Sequence record: NC_018859.1
DNA from: Escherichia phage ECBP2
Reading direction: 5' to 3' (one strand)
Length of the DNA stretch: 64,000 nucleotides
Shown here piece by piece: positions 3,377 through 64,000 of the stretch. The position numbers and the translations under genes are program-made. The number at the start of each line of letters is the position of its first letter. The first letter of the stretch is position 1. The notes beneath the pieces were generated by a model. That model was not told the DNA's origin. It was given only the letters and a program-made list of their open reading frames with translations, and did no database searches.

Positions 3377-6300
3377 ATGGCTCTCTATCCGATTAAATCA
3401 TTAGGCGCAGTTGGGGTTATCGCTGACCAAGCACCTACTGACTTAGCACCAAATGCTTTCACTAACGCTATTAATGCTCGGTTTGTTGAGCAGAGAGTCT
3501 TTAAGACGGGGGGTAATGCCCCTCTTTCTTATGTAGACGAAGATAAAGATCTGACTCCTCTCTCGTTCCTTTCAATGCCTTTCGATTATTATAGCGCAGG
3601 TACTAGCTTCCTTGTGGTAGGTACAGATAAGAAACTGTATAAACTTACCGATGAAAGTTTAACTGATATCAGCCGTAAGGTTGCTACAGCTACGAAGAAA
3701 GCATCAGCGACAATTAAGATTTATCCAGTGGTCTCTAGTATTTCCCCTAAAGAGACTTCTGTATCCATGAACTTTAACCAGACCAAGATTCTTGAAGTTG
3801 AAGTTAAACCAGTAGATGCACAGAATGCTAACCTAGTTTGGGAAGTGAGTAACTCTTCTTATGGTAGTATCGAGGTTGACCCTACTGATTCTAAGAAAGC
3901 TACACTGACTTCTAAATCAGTTGAAGGTAATCTAGTTGTTACGGTCAGTACAGCTGACGATTCTATCTCAGCTCAGATTGCAGTTAACATCATCGATGGT
4001 GATTCTGGTATTTATCTGAGTCAAGATACACTGACTATGCGTAAAGGTGGTACTTCTACTCTTACAGCTATCACAGGTAAACCTTCTGTAACTTGGACTT
4101 CTTCTAACCCATCTTTGATTTCGGTTTCTCCTAATGCTAACACTAAGACGGTTGTTCTTACAGCTCTTGGAGAAGGACAGGCAACTATCACCGCTGACAA
4201 TGGGACAAAGACTGCATCTTGTGTAGTAACAGCGATTCCTCAGATTGATAGTATCTCATTAAGCCAGACAGATGTTCAAATGAGTCGTGGTACTCAGTAT
4301 ATCTTGACAGCAACTGTTAGCCCAGCTAATGCTCCTAACCAAGCAATCACTTGGACTTCTTCTAATACCAATATTGCTACAGTAAGTGGTACAGGTACAG
4401 AAGCTACCATCACTGGTTTGCTTGCAGGTTATACGGAGATTACAGCAGTGACAGCAGAGGGAAGTCGTTCAGCAGTTTGTACTGTTCGAGTTGACCTATC
4501 CTCTCGTTTGGCAAGTAGGGCTATGTCAGCAATGGCTATCACTACAGAAGCTCCTGTAGAAGAACCGGTTGTTGAGTCAGAAGAAGTTACTTATTTTGAC
4601 ACTGATACAATTGGTATTGATACGTCAGGGATGTCAGAAGGGAATAACTTCTACGACTACTCCAACGTTATGGACTTGGAAGGATTTGGTAGAGCAGCAA
4701 TGCTTGCTAATGATCCTCCTCTCACTGGAGTTACTCTTGATGTTATTGATGCTTCTCTTGATGTAGGTGAAGAAATTGTTATCACAGCTACAGCATCTCC
4801 TACTGGAAGTTACACTTACAAGTGGACGGTTGATAAGAGTGGTTATGTTTCTACTACCTCTACAACTAACCCTACTTTGAAACTTACTGCTATTCGTAAG
4901 GGTGAGATTAAGGTGACTTGTACTGTAAGCCAGATGGTCCAGAAAGACTATGATGCGTTTGAAGATTATCCTTGGTATCATGCGATCATCTCTAACTGTG
5001 CAGTAGCAACTACTCACTACGAAACTCCTCAGGTTAAGGAATTCGATTCTGAATACTTCACTGATCTTCCGGGATGGGGTGAACAGACAGTTGTTGATGC
5101 AGATGGCAACCCTTCTGTTAAGAAGTATAACTGGAAGTGTGAACGAGTAAGGGCTTTTAATAATAGGTTGTTTGCTCTGAATATGAGAGAGTCTAACGCT
5201 TCTGGTGTTACTACTCATTATCCTCTTCGTTTACGTTGGTCTAACTTTGCAGAGGAAAACAAGGCTCCTGAGCTTTGGGATGATTATGCATACGACCGAG
5301 CAGTAACTTCTGACCTAGCAGCTAACATCGTAGGACAGACAGAAGCTCTTGAGAATGGTTACGCAGGGTATATTGACTTGGCTGACTCTAACGGTAGTTT
5401 GTTAGATGTTCTTCCTCTGAAAGATTACCTGTTCGTGTATACTGAGTTTGAAACCTACATTGGTTCTCCTACTAACAACACCTATCAGCCTTTGATGTTT
5501 AAGAAGCTGTTTAACGATTCAGGTATCCTTGCTCCTGAATGTGTGGTGGAAGTTGAGGGTGGTCACTTTGTAGTAACTCAGAACGACGTCATTCTACATA
5601 ATGGTGCTTCTAAGAAATCTATTGCTTCTAACCGAGTGAAGAACATGCTCATTAATGAGATTTGTCTGGTGAACCCAATTGCTACACGAGTTCATCTTCA
5701 TCAGGATAAGAAAGAAGTGTGGGTTCTTTATGTAGGTCCGGGTGAACCTAAAGAAAGTTTTGCTTGTACTAAGGCAGCTGTATGGAACTACGAGTTTGAT
5801 ACTTGGTCTTTCCGTACGATTCCTTACTCTTACTGTATCGGTCTGGTTGATCCTCCTGTTCTGGAACGTGGTCCTATCTGGGCTGATTTCCAAGAGATCA
5901 CTTGGGATGACCCTTCGATTGACAAACTGGTGTGGAGAAAAGATGCAACTAACTTCCGTCAGCGAGTTACAATCATAGGTTCTTTCTTGAAAGGATTTTA
6001 CCAAGTTGATATAGGAGCTTTGGATTATATCTATGACAGAACAAATGATGTGGTTATAGAGAAGCCTCTGGAAATGAGACTAGAGAGAACGGGGATTGAT
6101 TTTGATAACGTCACTAATGAATGGAATCAGAAACACATTAACCGATTTAGACCTCAAGTAACAGGAACAGGGACTTATACTTTTGAAGCAGGTGGTAGTC
6201 AATTCTCTAATGAGTATGGACACAACCACTCTACTAAAGAGTTTAGGGTTGGTGTAGATCGTCACGTAGCAGTCAGACTGAACCATCCATACCTATTCTA

Positions 6301-7443: not shown

Positions 7444-8463
7444 ATGGCGTATGGAATATGGTGTCAACCAGTGGGGCCGGGTCCAGCTACTCCGGCTGCT
7501 TTGTTTATAGATAGTAATTTAACATTTCCACAATATCTAGGGGCTTTTAGTATATCCCCTTCTTGGAGTGCAAGGAATGCCTCTTTTACTGTCGGTTCCT
7601 TTGACGGACAAGGTGAGTTGCTTATTGTTCCTACTAGTCGGTTGATTCAAGATTATTATGTTGGTACAGACCTGATGCCAAGCTTCAGCACTGTCACTGG
7701 CATAGGAACCTCTGGTCAGACTGTTAATATAAATATAGACCCAGCTGGTGCGAGTGGTAACAACAACCGTAACTTCCCCATGAGCTTTCAAGCCTATAAA
7801 CTCTGGCCTAGAGGTAATAGGAGTTATGGTATCACTTTCTCTAACTCAGCTGACTTCTTCTCTATCTCTGATAGTGGAGTTGTTGGTCAATGCACTTGGG
7901 CATACAGAGGTGGTGTTGGTGACGGCTTCACTGTTCCTAATGCTGGACCTAATGCTCTGGTTTTTGCCAATTGGAGTCAGGGAGGTGTGTGTGTTGGTTA
8001 TAATCCAAGTAATAGTCAAATGATTATTACTCACAATAGATCTAATCAATCTGGTAATAACAGAGGGGCTTCTGTTGGAGACATGCGAATAGCAGTATTT
8101 GCCAGTGGTGTAGGAGTTCCTGAGCACAATGGTGGCCTAAACATCTATTCACCGGGGACTACTTCTTGTGTCTTTTCTACCTACAGAACTCCTTTTGCCA
8201 TAAACAGATTCTTCCCTTCTAGTGGAGGAGGTACTGGATTAGGTATTCCTATGATGTGCCTTAATACTACTAATGGAGCTATAACTGGTCAAGGTGGGGG
8301 TTGGATGTGGGTTCATGAAAGAACACATACAATGGAGAATGGTACTGTTGGTACAGGTTTTGGACCTCTGGTTGCTAACTGGACAGATCAATATCCAATC
8401 AATGTAAATATAAATTTGAACTTCACATACCCAATGCTAGAAGGTTCTTTAATATACGCTTAA
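7444..8463 (+). CDS. Structural protein, unknown function
   Basis: The start overlaps the upstream stop (TAATATG). Beta-rich G/S/N/T composition. Located in the structural block. Confidence 0.5.
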   Translation: MAYGIWCQPVGPGPATPAALFIDSNLTFPQYLGAFSISPSWSARNASFTVGSFDGQGELLIVPTSRLIQDYYVGTDLMPSFSTVTGIGTSGQTVNINIDPAGASGNNNRNFPMSFQAYKLWPRGNRSYGITFSNSADFFSISDSGVVGQCTWAYRGGVGDGFTVPNAGPNALVFANWSQGGVCVGYNPSNSQMIITHNRSNQSGNNRGASVGDMRIAVFASGVGVPEHNGGLNIYSPGTTSCVFSTYRTPFAINRFFPSSGGGTGLGIPMMCLNTTNGAITGQGGGWMWVHERTHTMENGTVGTGFGPLVANWTDQYPINVNINLNFTYPMLEGSLIYA

Positions 8464-30938: not shown

Positions 30939-31414
30939 TCCAAAACCCTTTCTTCTAAATCGTAAAAGATTTGATTTGTCCCATTATTCTCAACAAGCAC
31001 TGTTCCATTATCTAACAGGGTAGCAACTTGGGAATAAGGAATGTTCTTTAACATCAGAGCATTAATGGTCGGCTTATTTTTGAAGTAAGCGACAGGCTCA
31101 ACATAGAAGGAAATCCCACGACTTCCTTTAATTGGAGTGCTAGAAGATAGAACCCAAATTGTTTCTGGCTTGTCTATTTCCTTTTCAACACCAACCTCAA
31201 CAAGTGAGTCAGCAGCGAAACCTACAGGACGACTAGAAGAGCCAAGTGCCCGAATAAATCCTGGCAATTTTGACATGTTAGACCAACTACCAGTGTTTTC
31301 ATTAAACACAGGTCTTACGTCTCCATATGCCCAAACCAGATTATCATAGTCACGGGCTATGTATTTAACCCAATCAGGAACATCATACTCCCTTCCTTCA
31401 AAAATAACTTTCAT
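30935..31414 (-). CDS. Hypothetical protein
   Basis: 159 aa with an ATGA overlap. Confidence 0.5.
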   Translation of the reverse strand: MKVIFEGREYDVPDWVKYIARDYDNLVWAYGDVRPVFNENTGSWSNMSKLPGFIRALGSSSRPVGFAADSLVEVGVEKEIDKPETIWVLSSSTPIKGSRGISFYVEPVAYFKNKPTINALMLKNIPYSQVATLLDNGTVLVENNGTNQIFYDLEERVLE

Positions 31415-54379: not shown

Positions 54380-54688
54380 TTATAAGGAGAAAGACTTCTT
54401 ACAATCCTTATCTTCAAAAGTGTAGTAGCCTGTTGTATCAGGGAAGTAGGCATACTTTGTTTCTTTGCCATCAGTAGCCATGACACGATTACCAGAAGTT
54501 GTTTCTACAAACAGAAGCCCATCTCTTACCATACCATTAGATTCTTTGATACCAGTTAAGCTATGCTCTTTAAGAGTGCATTGCTGAACACTCTGATACT
54601 TAACTCCAATCTCTGCACTATTAACAGAGATGATACCAATGGTTGTCATTAGTAGTAAGGTTGAGATGATAAAATGCTTTTGTTTCAC
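54380..54688 (-). CDS. Secreted protein
   Basis: GTG start after AGAGGT. Signal-like N-terminus HFIISTLLLMTTIGIISVNSA. Confidence 0.5.
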   Translation of the reverse strand: MKQKHFIISTLLLMTTIGIISVNSAEIGVKYQSVQQCTLKEHSLTGIKESNGMVRDGLLFVETTSGNRVMATDGKETKYAYFPDTTGYYTFEDKDCKKSFSL

Positions 54689-59471: not shown

Positions 59472-59692
59472 TTTCTCAATCCCAACTTTCTTAAGATACG
59501 GCCTAACGTTGTTTCTTGCGTGATAATATAGCTGATCGCTTCACGTTCCAACGTTTCGATCTTCATTGGCGACGGATACCATTCACCGGTAATCACACAT
59601 TTACACTCAACGCCATACTTTTTAGATAGGCGGTAATGTTGACCGTTGACAAGGTTTCTATAAATCGTGGTATGCGTAATTAACATGATCAT
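59468..59692 (-). CDS. Hypothetical small protein
   Basis: ATG at 59692 follows AAAGGTG. Confidence 0.45.
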   Translation of the reverse strand: MIMLITHTTIYRNLVNGQHYRLSKKYGVECKCVITGEWYPSPMKIETLEREAISYIITQETTLGRILRKLGLRK

Positions 59693-59713
59693 CACCTTTG
59701 ATTAAATTCTTTG

Positions 59714-59739
59714 ATTAATGCACTGAATCAATGCACTGA
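59714..59739. repeat. Tandem 13-bp direct repeat AT(T/C)AATGCACTGA x2
   Basis: Lies between the terminator at 59741..59773 and the start of 59468..59692. Confidence 0.6.
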
Positions 59740-59740
59740 T

Positions 59741-59773
59741 AAAAGAAAAGGCGCTACCCGTTAAGATAGCGCC
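59741..59773 (-). terminator. Rho-independent terminator
   Basis: Minus strand reads GGCGCTA-10 nt-TAGCGCC followed by TTTTCTTTT. Confidence 0.7.
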
Positions 59774-59797
59774 TTATGTTTATTCAAATTGTCTTAC

Positions 59798-60697
59798 TTA
59801 TGCTGCCTGACGTGCTGCCATAATCTCAGCCGCTTTACGCAATACTTCTTCCTCTTCTTCTTTCGCAGCTTGTTCGGTACGGGTAGCAACCGTTGAAGAG
59901 ATACGACCGCGCAGGCTTTCTAACTTCTCCTGCATTTTGGCAATGGTGGATTCCATTTCATCGGCATACGAATCCAGTGATTCCAGTTCCTTGCTTGATG
60001 CGTTCATCAGATAATCATCAGAGATCGCTACCGTTGAAGCCGTGACTTTCTTGATGAGTGAGTCAAAAGACTTCTTAACCTTGCCTACTTCTTCACTCAG
60101 GGCAATAGTATTATCACTGGTAGCGCCGTTACGTTCATCAGCCAATAATTTTGCTTCAATACGGATTGCATTTAAGCGTTCAACCAAAGCGTAAATATCT
60201 TGGTTAAAATCTTCCTTGTTTTTCGCCGGGATTTGCAGGTGTGCCGCCACGTTGTCATTGCAACCCTTGTAAAAGTTAGGGTTATCTACTTCAATTTCAC
60301 GACCTAACGCAAAGTTTTCGAAAGCGTTCGACCAGCGAGCGCGATTCTGTTCCATTTTGGCCTTAATTTGCGCTTCTTTCGCATCTTCTTTCGCTTTCGC
60401 TTCACCTTCCAGATTAATCCACTTTTTACGACCGTTTGCCGCATCGGTGTTAAACTTGACAGGAGTCAGGAAAGTGATTGCAGTGGCGATCACATCCATA
60501 TCACGAAAACGCTCGGTTAACAGAAAATCGACCGCCGCCTGCAATACGTCTAACTTTTTACCGTTGCTGCGGAAGTGCTGCAAATGACCTAACAGAAAAT
60601 TAGAAACATCTTGCTTAATCGCCGCGTTATTGCTACGAATGTTGTTAGCCAGTGCGTTAAAACCAGACTCTTTTACCAGATTAAAAATTTTAGCCAT
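59798..60697 (-). CDS. First gene downstream of the promoter region: acidic coiled-coil protein
   Basis: ATG at 60697 follows AAAGGTGA. 299 aa; the C-terminal half is helical and E/K/A-rich. Confidence 0.55.
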   Translation of the reverse strand: MAKIFNLVKESGFNALANNIRSNNAAIKQDVSNFLLGHLQHFRSNGKKLDVLQAAVDFLLTERFRDMDVIATAITFLTPVKFNTDAANGRKKWINLEGEAKAKEDAKEAQIKAKMEQNRARWSNAFENFALGREIEVDNPNFYKGCNDNVAAHLQIPAKNKEDFNQDIYALVERLNAIRIEAKLLADERNGATSDNTIALSEEVGKVKKSFDSLIKKVTASTVAISDDYLMNASSKELESLDSYADEMESTIAKMQEKLESLRGRISSTVATRTEQAAKEEEEEVLRKAAEIMAARQAA

Positions 60698-60763
60698 GAT
60701 ATTCACCTTTCAATTGTAAGGGCACTATGCCCCGCTCTCTATGAGCTTTTTAAGTCGCCATTG

Positions 60764-60840
60764 ACTTATCAATATCCACTCATTGTTAAGTAATTATTGA
60801 TAAGTGGGGCGGTCTTATCAGAAGTTAACCTTGCCGCCCC
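60764..60840. promoter_or_regulatory. Perfect 11-bp inverted repeat (ACTTATCAATA / TATTGATAAGT, 20-bp spacer) abutting a 7-bp GC stem (GGGGCGG / CCGCCCC)
   Basis: Read directly: arms at 60764-60774 and 60795-60805, GC stem at 60806-60812 and 60834-60840. Lies 70-140 nt upstream of the ATG at 60697. Confidence 0.4.
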
Positions 60841-61618
60841 TTTATCTGTGATGTTTCATCTGGTATCTTTAATTAGTCGCTATAAACGAAGCCGACCTGA
60901 TAGCGATGATCAATCATCACAATAAGGCAGTGCGTCCGACTCTAATTAGTTACTTTATTGTAACCGTCGGCAATATCGTCTACTTTGCTTTCGCTCTCGC
61001 CTATCCTTTTATACTAACTCTCAATCGCTAACCATCGCCCACTACGGGAGGTTATTGCGAAAGAGTCATTAGCCGTCTAATATTCCGACGTTTTATATCT
61101 TTCGGCAAGTTTACTACATAACCCGACTATGTACTTTCATCTTATGATGAATCTCAAGCCGTTCACATCGTAAACGTTCACACTAAACCTTATTGTTAAA
61201 TAGCAATTTGCCACTTTTTAACCACTCCCCGCCGCTCTCAATTGAGCGTTAATTCGTCGGACTTGCCTACCCTGATTAACTTCTTTCACTGTAGCACCAT
61301 GTTAGCGATGGCCGCCGCTACCCTTAACCGTGGGCGATTAGCTTAAGCCTTTGCGTGTACTCAATGAATCCGTTTATCAGTGGTGACTTTTCCAGTAAGG
61401 GAATGTAAAACTGTTTACCCTGATATTTTAGGGAGTTTTACGCCGTTTTATCTGGTATGCTGTCCGATGGTTATTATCTTCCAGCATATTTAACCGATAT
61501 AGGAGAATGTTTAAATTGTTAAAGAGCGGTAAATCTATCAACGTGCTTTCTCACGTTATGCAACTGTTAGCCGTTGTTACGCTTTTCACTGAAGCGGTGA
61601 TTTGCTCAAGTGATGCTC

Positions 61619-61647
61619 ATTATGGACCATGTTGTTTTTGCCGTCAA
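61619..61647 (-). promoter_or_regulatory. Sigma70-type promoter P2 with A-tract UP element
   Basis: Minus strand reads GAAAAAGATTAAAAAAGTGA TTGACG -17 nt- CATAAT GAGCAT. Confidence 0.65.
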
Positions 61648-61921
61648 TCACTTTTTTAATCTTTTTCGTCGTTCCCGCTATTGGGAGGATATATCAACCC
61701 GCTTTATTGGGTTGAAGATTAAGCGATGAGGCTTAACCCATGATTCATATTGTTAAAGAGCGTTTAGCCTTTTATAGTGTCTGCTAATCACTACATCATT
61801 AAAGGCTTACTTGTTCATTAACGGGGCGCCTAAGCCCGAACTACCCGCTGCACTATGTGCCACCTTTCCCGCGATACGTTGATTTGGGAACTAGTTAACG
61901 TTGTTTTGTTAACTTGTGGTT

Positions 61922-61950
61922 AGTATGGACTACCTTAACCACGTTTGCAA
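61922..61950 (-). promoter_or_regulatory. Sigma70-type promoter P3 with A-tract UP element
   Basis: Minus strand reads GATGATAAAAAAGAGG TTGCAA -17 nt- CATACT. Confidence 0.55.
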
Positions 61951-62250
61951 CCTCTTTTTTATCATCTTCTTTTATTCTTTTCCCTTATCTCGCGTGAATC
62001 TATGCGAAAGGGCAAGATGATAAGTCTGATTTGTCTTTTAGGAATCTAGTGCGCTTTCAAGCATTGACCATTTGAAAGTATCGAACAAATGAGGCTTATT
62101 TTGTTGCTCATCGTCCGCATGTTCACGTATGAATCAGGAATCAATTCTAGTGGTCAACTAAGCGCCTTATAGTAATGACGTTCCCGCCACCTGTAAGACA
62201 AATCATATTTTTAAAGAGCGGGATTTTTCAAGTCATCGCTGACTATGCTC

Positions 62251-62279
62251 ACTATATATCAGGCTTTTTCCGGTGTCAA
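62251..62279 (-). promoter_or_regulatory. Sigma70-type promoter P1 with A-tract UP element
   Basis: Minus strand reads GAAAATACTTGAAAAAGAGTA TTGACA -17 nt- TATAGT GAGCAT. Confidence 0.7.
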
Positions 62280-62376
62280 TACTCTTTTTCAAGTATTTTC
62301 ACTTTCTAGCCTGATTTTTAAAGAGCGGGGCAATTTCTTGCCTTGTATGTTTTACATCGTACCCGATGAAATGAAG

Positions 62377-62385
62377 TATACATTA
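62377..62385 (-). promoter_or_regulatory. TAATGTATA motif inside the ORF-free region
   Basis: Minus strand reads GATTAATGTATACTTC. Confidence 0.4.
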
Positions 62386-62557
62386 ATCAGATGAGGTTGC
62401 AATAGGGTAAAGCAAATTATTTTAAACTTTTTCACTATAGGGAGGTAAAAGAGCGGGCGCACGTGATACATCATAGGAAACGGCTTGTAAAGCGATAAAA
62501 AGCGGCCTGAAACGCACTGTAGCGAGCTAAAAGGGAGTAAGGTATACAATCACCTTA

Positions 62558-62585
62558 GAAAAGAAAAAAGCCTCATAGCGAGGCT
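62558..62585 (-). terminator. Rho-independent terminator
   Basis: Minus strand reads AGCCTC-GCTAT-GAGGCT followed by TTTTTTCTTTT. Confidence 0.75.
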
Positions 62586-62597
62586 TATAAGAAGGGT

Positions 62598-62678
62598 TTA
62601 AAACATCAGATAGATTATGACCATAGGCATGACCACGGCACAATAAAGAAGGAAGATCAGTCCTATGGATTTAAGCAT
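62598..62678 (-). CDS. Hydrophobic micro-peptide (26 aa)
   Basis: Reads MLKSIGLIFLLYCAVVMPMVIIYLMF. The start overlaps the stop of the upstream micro-ORF. A terminator follows. Confidence 0.3.
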   Translation of the reverse strand: MLKSIGLIFLLYCAVVMPMVIIYLMF

Positions 62679-62772
62679 TACCCATAGCCGATAGTAAAAC
62701 ACCCAGCAGGAGAACGACCAGAAAAAACCCTACAACCGTTTTAATGATGAATTTAATAAACCACATAGCCAT
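62671..62772 (-). CDS. Hydrophobic micro-peptide (33 aa)
   Basis: SD AAGAGG lies 4 nt before the ATG. Reads MAMWFIKFIIKTVVGFFLVVLLLGVLLSAMGNA. Confidence 0.35.
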   Translation of the reverse strand: MAMWFIKFIIKTVVGFFLVVLLLGVLLSAMGNA

Positions 62773-62860
62773 AAACCTCTTTAATTAAAGGATGTAAGAA
62801 TAAAGCATATCAGCGACGAATAACGCCACTGTAACGACGAATAAGCACCGCCAAAAATAA

Positions 62861-63127
62861 TCATTCCCCATTTATATCACCCTCAATCAGCCCATGATTT
62901 AGCAGGTTAGCAAGTGATAATCCACCGTCAAAATATATAGAACGAAAATCATCGCGGGTAATTTCAAAATCAGCAAAGGCTAGCCAATCTTTAAGAGGCT
63001 GATATTCCATCCTGCAAAAAGTGATAACAGGTAACGTTATCTGACCATCAAGTGTGTTAAACATGATAGATTGCTCGCCAACAAAACAAGAAAAGCCGTT
63101 TGATAATTTAACTTCTTTAATAGCCAT
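62861..63127 (-). CDS. Hypothetical protein
   Basis: SD TGGAG. 88 aa. Confidence 0.5.
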   Translation of the reverse strand: MAIKEVKLSNGFSCFVGEQSIMFNTLDGQITLPVITFCRMEYQPLKDWLAFADFEITRDDFRSIYFDGGLSLANLLNHGLIEGDINGE

Positions 63128-63153
63128 TATTTATACTCCAAAAAATAGATTAT

Positions 63154-63645
63154 TTACTTACTAGCCTTAATGCAGTTGGCTAAATTAACGTGAACGGTAT
63201 AAACAGCGTTATCAGCGTTATTATAAACGGTAGTCGCAAGCATTGATTCGTTCATCGGGCCATAACTGACCAGATTCGTGACAGCTTTCGCATGGCTGTA
63301 ACGTTGTACAGTGCCAAATGTAACTAGTTCAGGATCGTTATCAGTACGCTTGAGAACTAGATCACTGTTAGGCTGATTGTCTAGTGTTTTGGTACTAACG
63401 ACCAGACCATCACGGGAAACGTTACTGAATTTAACTTTTAACACGATTTGATTGGTGTCACTATCCGCACCGTTACAAATCAGCCAACCTTTATTGATGG
63501 AACTAGCGAAAACGTCAGCGGCATTAGTTGCAGGAGCAGGACTAGCGATAGCCTTATCAGAAAGAGAAGTTACCAGTGTACTAACACCGATCGCGGCGAC
63601 TAGCGCATAACTTGCCAGATTAATAGCCTGCATTACTTTCGCCAT
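63154..63645 (-). CDS. Secreted/periplasmic protein
   Basis: SD AAGGAG. Signal-like N-terminus INLASYALVAAIGVSTLVTSLSDKAIA. Confidence 0.55.
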   Translation of the reverse strand: MAKVMQAINLASYALVAAIGVSTLVTSLSDKAIASPAPATNAADVFASSINKGWLICNGADSDTNQIVLKVKFSNVSRDGLVVSTKTLDNQPNSDLVLKRTDNDPELVTFGTVQRYSHAKAVTNLVSYGPMNESMLATTVYNNADNAVYTVHVNLANCIKASK

Positions 63646-63684
63646 TTTTGTTACTCCTTAGGTAGAATCAATTAACTATTGCCA

Positions 63685-63712
63685 ACTATATAATAAAAGG
63701 AAAGAGCGACAA
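63685..63712 (-). promoter_or_regulatory. Sigma70-type promoter P4
   Basis: Minus strand reads GCTAAAAATAAATAG TTGTCG -16 nt- TATAGT, 40 nt upstream of the SD of 63154..63645. Confidence 0.5.
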
Positions 63713-63917
63713 CTATTTATTTTTAGCTTTCTTATAACTCACTGAATCTTAAAGAAATTTAATTTACTAACTTCTCTCATTCAGGGCATAGCTTACTACT
63801 TCTATTGTTACTTTATAACATAACGCCAGACCGACGGGGAGAACGTGCCGCATAAACAGACCTACGGGGCAACGGTACAACGTAACCAGCACGGGGGAAG
63901 GATAAACGGGTAACCTA

Positions 63918-63926
63918 TAATGTATG
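63918..63926 (+). promoter_or_regulatory. TAATGTATG (one mismatch), candidate rightward late promoter at window edge
   Basis: CCTATAATGTATGTTG on the plus strand resembles the site at 12974 (CTTATAATGTATATAGG). It points toward genes beyond the window. Confidence 0.35.
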
Positions 63927-64000
63927 TTGTTACATGATGCTATTGTTAGCGGCTTGCGGGGATAATATACCAATCAAATAATTAACCCATCAAACTATCA

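Follow-up and report, generated by a model that had tools for sequence, protein, structure and literature searches.

BoxA is an RNA signal that is bound by the NusB-NusE(S10) heterodimer and seeds the Nus-factor antitermination complex on the ribosomal RNA (rRNA) operons of E. coli; in phage lambda, boxA seeds this complex together with the N protein. The rRNA operons (rrn) have boxA copies in both the leader and the spacer. The gamma-proteobacterial boxA consensus is GYTCTTTAANA (Baniulyte 2017, PMC5725501), and NusB/NusE contact an 8-nucleotide (nt) boxA core (PMC3177189). The RNAs used in binding studies were the rrnG boxA-spacer CACugcucuuuaacaauuua, lambda nutL cgcucuuaaaaauuaa, and lambda nutR cgcucuuacacauucca (Prasch 2009, PMC2724277), and the sequence CUUUA sets the high-affinity rrn boxA apart from the weaker lambda boxA (PMC2724277). 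BoxA is needed for long untranslated RNAs, namely rRNA (PMC4807359) and the arrays of clustered regularly interspaced short palindromic repeats (CRISPR) (PMC7665894). Here we describe a repeated motif that matches this consensus in Escherichia phage ECBP2 (NC_018859.1), of which a stretch of 64,000 nt, hereafter the window, was analyzed. The motif lies in a gap of about 1.9 kb (60707-62560) without any open reading frame (ORF) of more than 50 amino acids, upstream of a conserved structured RNA of about 0.8 kb.

The motif, TTAAAGAGCG, had been pointed out in a first-pass annotation as an irregularly spaced, same-orientation repeat with no exact copy noticed elsewhere. The window (64 kb) has exactly four matches, which all lie on the plus strand and within 0.8 kb (61519, 61753, 62211, and 62318), and the one-mismatch copy TAAAAGAGCG was present at 62446; the copies are separated by intervals of 234, 458, 107, and 128 nt, and copies 2 and 3 resemble each other over a longer stretch, both as described. 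Extended similarity, up to 18-36 nt, is shared by copies 1-3. Dinucleotide shuffling gave an expectation of 0.15 matches, and none of 100 shuffles reached four. The remaining seven one-mismatch matches were dispersed over both strands.

Read on the minus strand, the motif is CGCTCTTTAA(C/A)AA, and the copies read CCGCTCTTTAACAATTTA, ACGCTCTTTAACAATATG, CCGCTCTTTAAAAATATG, and CCGCTCTTTAAAAATCAG. All four exact copies are perfect matches to GYTCTTTAANA on this strand (61517-61527, 61751-61761, 62209-62219, and 62316-62326; boxA-1 to boxA-4 in Table 1). A scan of the window with this consensus gave seven matches against 0.60 expected, four of them grouped in the gap on the sense strand and three lone. 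Copy 1 (CGCTCTTTAACAATTTA) is identical to the rrnG boxA-spacer ugcucuuuaacaauuua at 16 of 17 bases (PMC2724277, Table 1), and all four copies carry CUUUA. Their orientation is that of the flanking genes, which lie on the minus strand, and of the published leftward early transcription. The repeats are very probably rrn-type boxA elements, that is, RNA sites for host NusB-NusE(S10), set in tandem cassettes of promoter, (hairpin), and boxA. The first-pass annotation had offered as its fallback that CCGCUCUUUAA on the transcribed minus strand was a recurring RNA-binding site, which was essentially right, although the site was not recognised as boxA.

Conservation was examined in 20 GenBank genomes spanning three genera, which with the window made 21 genomes, and in eight metagenomic or IMG/VR contigs, which brought the total to 29. 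Sense copies with the loose core AAGAGCG were found at the homologous place in each of the 20 GenBank relatives (3-6 per genome), and the eight contigs shared the layout. Strict-consensus boxAs numbered 3-5 per genome and were invariably sense and inside the gap; one truncated contig had only one. All 87 strict-consensus copies in the 21 genomes were on the sense strand. At the three positions after the selected core, A was found in 87 copies, A in 86, and T in 79, and the consensus N position was A in 48, C in 24, and T in 15. Both flanks were variable, and a 13-nt block was almost invariant across the 87 copies and three genera. In two alignments of the region (A1 and A2; 22 sequences) the consensus N was the sole variable column within the motif. 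The position of boxA-1 was kept in all 29 relatives and that of boxA-2 in all 21 genomes, and the two boxAs nearest the first downstream gene, the phi32_124 homologue (gene 124), were fixed in place in all 29 sequences. The upstream copies differed in number among relatives, which indicates that cassettes have been gained and lost. The enrichment over shuffled sequence and this conservation, on either of which the first-pass annotation could have failed, therefore both support the motif.

Promoter-like sites were scored in the 21 genomes with a simple sigma70 position weight matrix (PWM), from which transcription starts were predicted. The data showed that 69 of 73 strong sigma70-like promoter sites in the gap had a boxA 7-150 nt past the predicted start, and that 69 of 87 boxAs had a strong promoter-like site 7-150 nt upstream. 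Many cassette promoters are of the TTGACA-16/17-TATAAT class. The first-pass description of the motif as interleaved with the early promoters was therefore right, and these promoter-boxA pairs are the key to the architecture. The promoter at 62279-62251 had a PWM score of 15.8, the highest in the whole window, and boxA-3 follows at about +24. Upstream of boxA-1, TTGAC(A/G)-17-CATAAT was found in all 21 genomes at a distance of 75-89 nt, and the promoter at 61647-61619 is predicted to drive boxA-1 and the structured RNA. Most relatives have a TTGACA-16-TAAGCT/TAGAAT promoter 7-17 nt upstream of boxA-2; this window has only a weak TTGCAA-17-CATACT about 153 nt upstream. The promoter-like site at 62231-62202 is probably secondary. 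The translated early operon just upstream of the gap has promoter-like sites, and no boxA was found there in the window scan.

Two other relations between the motif and promoters were considered and rejected. Placement as a spacer or operator within sigma70 promoters is true of one weaker site only (62231-62202); elsewhere in the 21 genomes the motif lies downstream of the promoter at a variable distance. A plus-strand promoter, TTGTTA-17-TATAGT at 61750, is not common to the other copies.

In single-sequence folds, a hairpin precedes each boxA, which is the rrn order of boxB then boxA and not the lambda order. The hairpin at 61557-61540 showed three compensatory stem pairs among 22 sequences (RNAalifold: AU19/GC3, GC15/AU6, and UA13/CG7/AU1/GC1). 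In minimum free energy folds of the leader, whose z-scores were not significant, three of the four boxAs were unpaired, while boxA-4 and the first bases of boxA-1 were partly paired; some RNAalifold models likewise paired the start of boxA-1, with no covariation. A lambda-type nut arrangement was not found, since the hairpins are 5' of boxA and no boxA 3' flank formed a hairpin in the folds, which were not a systematic search. No N-like protein was identified, without a search for one, and no boxC-like GU-rich element was noticed by eye, without a systematic search.

The region between boxA-1 and gene 124 is untranslated. Its conservation is similar to that of the first ~50 nt of the adjoining coding sequence, and indels of many lengths are tolerated. 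RNAalifold on alignment A1 in the sense orientation gave a structure of 235 base pairs, 77 of them with compensatory double changes, at -240 kcal/mol, and 98.8% of 5161 cells form standard pairs on this structure. Changes on both sides of a pair were observed in 77 pairs and 300 cells. Within-column shuffles gave 33.6 ± 3.4 pairs and 77 ± 9 cells, and none of 500 reached the observed values; when the 3' partner was slid by 1-3 columns as a control, 7-13 pairs and 12-23 cells were obtained, with 35-48% paired. The alifold energy was -236 for the sense strand, -88 ± 7.6 for column-shuffled alignments (z about -19), and -160 for the antisense strand, and many G-U to A-U or G-C changes are compatible with the sense strand only. 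The region is therefore either a large RNA with extensive structure or a very long structured 5' leader belonging to gene 124.

Rfam 15 gave no matches at E ≤ 1 over 59500-64000 and five sub-threshold chance matches at E ≤ 10 over 60650-61700. The tRNA search found only one tRNA-Arg, far away. Among the sequences examined, matches to a sequence profile of the RNA were confined to the phiEco32-like clade, and nhmmer found no distant homologues in PJNS034, 7-11, T7, or IMG/VR loci. Scans with an 18-mer of the RNA (IMG/VR) and with ACGGTT..GGGTAGCGGCGG (metagenome) returned close relatives only, plus many chance metagenome matches. RNAalifold also proposed a possible closing helix without covariation, in which 7 nt just 5' of boxA-1 (61528-61534) pair with the Shine-Dalgarno region of gene 124 (60702-60708); we speculate that it would resemble the leader-spacer stem enclosing 16S rRNA. 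In phage LAMP (L017, ~1890-1960; A1 columns 445-527), one arm of the RNA is swapped for an unrelated insert ~35 nt longer and the flanking helices are kept, which suggests that this site is a variable peripheral domain.

Several sites resembling the motif were also examined. The 62446 site (CGCTCTTTTACC; CGCUCUUUUACC) does not fit the boxA consensus and shows little conservation, a one-mismatch version occurring in only 5 of 21 genomes, so it is probably a weak or decaying copy. The first-pass annotation had further listed a related sequence in inverse orientation with a GC hairpin at 60732 and a degenerate copy at 63701. The former is present (60728-60741 against 62319-62332; 14 nt, 93% complementary), but it is the junction of the last two hairpins of the structured RNA (helices 36 and 37), each with a compensatory pair. 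The latter does overlap the -35 of a minus-strand promoter-like site, TTGTCG-16-TATAGT, but it shares only AAAGAGCG with the motif and fails the consensus at three positions. Both are unrelated, coincidental look-alikes. Another look-alike at 61196 (GCTATTTAACAAT / GCUAUUUAACAAU; 61188-61212, minus strand) lies within the structured RNA, where it forms a hairpin and a 10-bp long-range helix (A1 columns 345-355 with 654-663). It is invariant in 20 of 22 sequences and has two point changes in phage TH42. It fails the boxA consensus and has a C5A change, by which lambda boxA is known to be inactivated (PMC3177189), so it may be an exapted or decayed boxA. The three lone perfect consensus matches lie outside the gap, all on the plus strand (8444-8454, 31043-31053, and 54565-54575), one sense to late genes and two antisense to minus-strand genes; they are probably due to chance, slightly exceeding the whole-window expectation of 0.6.

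Taken as rrn-type boxAs, these elements would act as follows. Host sigma70 RNA polymerase would start at a minus-strand early cassette promoter, and the nascent RNA would expose CGCUCUUUAA(C/A)AA within its first ~10-150 nt. NusB/NusE would bind this boxA, and NusA, NusG, and SuhB, possibly with S4, would join to form an rrn-like complex that is fast, termination-resistant, and RNA-chaperoning. This complex would resist Rho and pausing, transcribe the ~0.8-1.6 kb of untranslated structured RNA, and continue into gene 124 and beyond; it may also aid co-transcriptional folding, as proposed for rRNA. Antitermination of the host rRNA type would thus be used without an N protein. The analysis itself shows the match to boxA, the sense orientation, the placement behind predicted promoters, the conservation with change at the consensus N only, and the untranslated structured RNA downstream, and from these we infer that Nus factors bind, that the leader is sensitive to Rho, and that antitermination or chaperone activity follows. 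The untranslated structured RNA is preceded by several boxAs and the translated early operon by none, which fits a protection role. In a wider reading, to which we give about an even chance, the gap of ~1.9 kb would be a mimic of an rRNA operon, in which the promoter-boxA tandem drives a ~0.8 kb RNA that needs the host Nus complex for its synthesis and co-transcriptional folding and has its own role in infection; candidate roles are host takeover, anti-defence, and regulation of gene 124.

Several points weigh against the antitermination reading. The sense RNA is G-rich, not C-rich, and is therefore no obvious rut-type Rho substrate. Complexes of the rrn type cope better with Rho-dependent terminators than with strong intrinsic ones, and a strong intrinsic terminator follows gene 124. 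To our knowledge, 3-6 boxAs per transcription unit exceeds any described system, and this high number may reflect a further function, for instance the titration of Nus factors. In this window, no strong promoter is found within 150 nt of boxA-2, and boxA-3 lies inside the spacer of a second promoter-like site; therefore, a DNA-level role is formally conceivable there. The literature searched, which did not take in the primary phiEco32 papers (Savalia 2008; Pavlova 2012), gave no experiments in this phage group on where transcription starts, on Nus binding, or on dependence on Rho. In the same search boxA and phiEco32 were not named together, and the ~0.8 kb structured RNA was absent. In the literature on the phiEco32 family, the question of whether early transcripts are antiterminated was explicitly raised and left unanswered, in a remark made on phage 7-11 (PMC8948821).

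Consensus boxAs were also found in other virulent coliphages. T7 has an early-leader boxA, which we presume has been remarked on in the T7 literature; our literature search found no relevant paper on boxA in T7 or in virulent phages. This boxA, CGCTCTTTAACAATCTGG, lies at 812-829 (NC_001604), ahead of gene 0.3 and 63 nt downstream of the A3 start, and is unannotated in RefSeq. In a T7-like IMG/VR contig, three promoter-boxA cassettes stand ahead of the RNA polymerase gene, and in coliphage PJNS034 two such cassettes lie within a gap of 1.8 kb that is likewise free of ORFs (4984-5192). Therefore, there is precedent at the sequence level for an early-leader boxA in virulent coliphages. Salmonella phage 7-11 had no consensus boxA in its rightmost 16 kb. 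The IMG/VR scan for CGCTCTTTAACAAT gave mostly single matches, which are probably due to chance, and only clusters were informative. Two or three same-orientation boxAs were seen in L024 (5294-6574; also L023 and L128), L043 (2973-3911), L095 (853-2007), and L147 (PJNS034), which are dissimilar to the window except for shared promoter/boxA-cassette segments in L023 and PJNS034. A TTGACA-type promoter precedes most boxAs in L023, L024, and L128, and one in L043 and in PJNS034; none was visible in L095, where each boxA ends a direct repeat of ~60 nt. In L024, which is T7-like (RNA polymerase gene), and in L023 and L128, boxA is flanked by the inverted repeat GGCATACATAGGTACA ... TGTAACCTATGTAAGCC.

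Other explanations of the repeats were weighed against these data. The boxAs could be decoys, in which many boxA RNAs, made from strong promoters on replicating phage DNA, titrate NusB/NusE/SuhB; the synthesis of host rRNA and the assembly of ribosomes would then be crippled as part of host takeover. The unusually high copy number (3-5 strict copies), its variation between close relatives as if dosage were tuned, and the near-consensus promoter ahead of each copy would suit such a role. However, a decoy would not need a fixed position just upstream of a conserved structured RNA, and all 29 sequences have the two gene-proximal boxAs in the same place. We consider titration unlikely as the main function, but it is compatible with antitermination, and both could operate together.

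DNA-level sites were the preferred proposal of the first-pass annotation, namely iterons or operators bound by a phage protein such as an early-promoter repressor, a replication initiator, or a small terminase. Same-orientation repeats in a non-coding, promoter-rich region, one of them within the spacer of a promoter-like site, would be expected of such sites. However, the copies lie 7-150 nt downstream of predicted starts and co-oriented with transcription, with no fixed distance to the -35 or -10, no dyad symmetry, and irregular spacing, and all 87 strict copies are on the sense strand. Moreover, their sequence is the host boxA consensus, their variable position is the consensus N, and the surrounding region is under RNA-level constraint with sense-specific G-U covariation; this proposal is not supported and is very improbable. 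We regard it as equally improbable that the motif was simply carried along when promoter cassettes were recently duplicated, or that it is a site for RNase or other RNA processing, in either case unlinked to Nus factors. The similarity of copies 1-3 over up to 18-36 nt and the varying cassette number, which indicates duplication and loss, are what a passenger would show, but the 13-nt block is almost invariant between variable flanks. An accidental 16/17 identity to the rrn boxA-spacer, four times and only on the sense strand, would be very unlikely, and the unrelated phages T7, PJNS034, and the T7-like contig carry the block behind their own, different promoters. The Nus-factor reading of the boxAs therefore remains preferred.

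The phage and the surroundings of the gap were also analyzed. By BLAST, the region of the window matched ~97 deposited coliphage genomes at 86-96% identity, including phiEco32, SU10, and several BASEL phages, with KBNP1711 closest. BLAST and taxonomy place the group among the phiEco32-like podoviruses (subfamily Gordonclarkvirinae; genera Kuravirus, Nieuwekanaalvirus, and Suseptimavirus), which ruled out an N4/G7C-like phage with virion-polymerase hairpin promoters or N4 middle promoters (t/aTTTA). In the phiEco32-like family, late genes are transcribed rightward and middle and early genes leftward, with early genes at the right end (PMC8948821; PMC12276001). Host sigma70 RNA polymerase transcribes the early genes, the phage sigma factor gp36 serves middle and late genes (consensus tAATGTAtA), and gp79 later turns off sigma70 transcription (PMC8948821; PMC12276001). 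The ORFs and strand composition of the window agree with this layout, with plus-strand genes to ~17.5 kb and minus-strand genes from ~17.5 to 64 kb. The motif has no resemblance to gp36 middle/late promoters and was rejected as such; the single TAATGTATA in the gap is lineage-specific. This exact gp36-type sequence (62377-62385, minus strand) overlaps the -10 of the promoter at 62402-62375; besides the window, only Bas90 and KBNP1711 have it in the gap. It may be there by chance, or it could allow the RNA of this lineage to be expressed in the middle or late phase.

The gap is bordered by the phi32_124 homologue on one side and by the intrinsic terminator of the upstream early operon on the other, and it was left blank in careful annotations of relatives. 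The homologue of this terminator is annotated as a terminator in SU10, 4E8, and SU7. The phi32_124 homologue had no Pfam domains, and PHROG 13018 gave no functional clue. Further to the right (63815-63900), three direct repeats of the form (A/G)ACC-N-ACGGGG(A/C)A, about 30 nt apart, were seen by eye (gaccgacggggagaacg, gacctacggggcaacgg, and aaccagcacgggggaagg); in the minus-strand sense they lie upstream of the rightmost early promoter-like sites.

Table 1. Features in and around the ORF-free gap, in window coordinates.
Feature	Position	Strand	Remarks
phi32_124 homologue (first downstream gene)	59798..60697	-	299 amino acids; function unknown; PHROG 13018
Conserved structured untranslated RNA, ~0.8 kb	60720..61515	-	between boxA-1 and start of phi32_124 homologue
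boxA-1 CGCTCTTTAACAA (then TTTA)	61516..61528	-	perfect consensus; copy closest to structured RNA
boxB-like hairpin AACGUG-agaaag-CACGUU	61540..61557	-	11 nt 5' of boxA-1
Sigma70-type promoter TTGACG-17-CATAAT	61619..61647	-	predicted start ~61611; boxA-1 at ~+84
boxA-2 CGCTCTTTAACAA (then TATG)	61750..61762	-	perfect consensus
Promoter-like TTGAAA-18-TATGAT	62202..62231	-	spacer holds boxA-3; scored only in this window and KBNP1711 at the PWM threshold
boxA-3 CGCTCTTTAAAAA	62208..62220	-	perfect consensus
Sigma70-type promoter TTGACA-17-TATAGT	62251..62279	-	predicted start ~62243; 11/12 consensus; kept in relatives
boxA-4 CGCTCTTTAAAAA	62315..62327	-	perfect consensus
Hairpin GGCAA-gaaa-UUGCC (GGCAAgaaaTTGCC)	62329..62342	-	directly 5' of boxA-4; single-sequence fold
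Sigma70-type promoter TTGCAA-16-TATACT	62375..62402	-	predicted start ~62368; boxA-4 at ~+41
Degenerate boxA-like copy CGCTCTTTTACCT	62443..62455	-	retains 8-nt core CGCUCUUU; fails GYTCTTTAANA at two positions
Intrinsic terminator closing upstream early operon (phi32_125-128 homologues)	62568..62586	-	predicted

We regard the repeat as real and now largely explained; an unexplained repeat has been turned into a specific mechanism that is cheap to test. About 100 deposited phiEco32-like genomes have nothing annotated in the gap, which appears to be neither a spacer nor an origin but the transcription unit of a large, conserved RNA with extensive structure. Large conserved structured RNAs are a rare class of molecule, and this phage family is already used in transcription research and phage therapy. 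BoxA itself is textbook knowledge; novelty is most likely in the use of several cassettes and, more than anything else, in the structured RNA of ~0.8 kb. The boxAs of T7, the T7-like contig, and PJNS034, together with those of the phiEco32-like phages, suggest a common strategy, in which an N-independent boxA of the rrn type would be placed behind strong early promoters among virulent coliphages, beyond the lambdoid phages. In phage genomes, early transcription units and non-coding RNAs that have been overlooked could be picked out by a simple scan for consensus boxA. We rate the interest of the locus as moderate to high, because a unit resembling an rRNA operon and a large RNA without an Rfam match are exposed in a well-studied phage family, and each step can be tested directly.

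The locus was finally compared with known systems. T7 is likewise a virulent coliphage with strong early promoters for the host polymerase (A1-A3) followed by a consensus boxA, but there one boxA serves three promoters and stands ahead of translated genes (0.3 onward), not of a 0.8 kb structured RNA. Lambda nutL and nutR are also phage boxA RNAs with C as the first base that recruit host Nus factors for early antitermination, as is proposed here; however, lambda has a weaker boxA, CGCUCUUA, which depends on N bound to a boxB hairpin downstream, whereas here the boxA is of the consensus rrn type and the hairpins are upstream. The boxA in the suhB 5' untranslated region (PMC5725501) is likewise a consensus boxA outside the rRNA operons, but there the start codon is no more than 50 nt away and boxA acts to repress translation, promoting Rho termination, whereas the phage boxAs are ~0.8-1.6 kb from the next start codon. 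BoxA-1 would come near the gene 124 ribosome-binding site, as in suhB, only if the closing helix without covariation forms. The boxA of CRISPR arrays in Salmonella and many other genera (Stringer et al. 2020, PMC7665894) similarly stands in the leader of a long untranslated RNA that is structured or processed and gives protection from Rho, which would be its role here; those arrays are chromosomal and have one boxA each and no tandem promoter cassettes. The E. coli rrn leader (boxB-boxA-boxC; NusA/B/E/G, SuhB, and S4) has the same boxA including CUUUA, and copy 1 also has the AACAAUUUA spacer. The order of hairpin then boxA, the strong tandem sigma70 promoters upstream, the long structured untranslated RNA downstream, and more than one boxA per unit are also shared. 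The phage locus differs from rrn in being phage-encoded, in having C as the first base as in lambda and not U, and in having 3-6 cassettes, each with its own promoter; its downstream RNA is not rRNA and has no Rfam match. Overall, the arrangement is closest to rrn leaders and CRISPR-array leaders.

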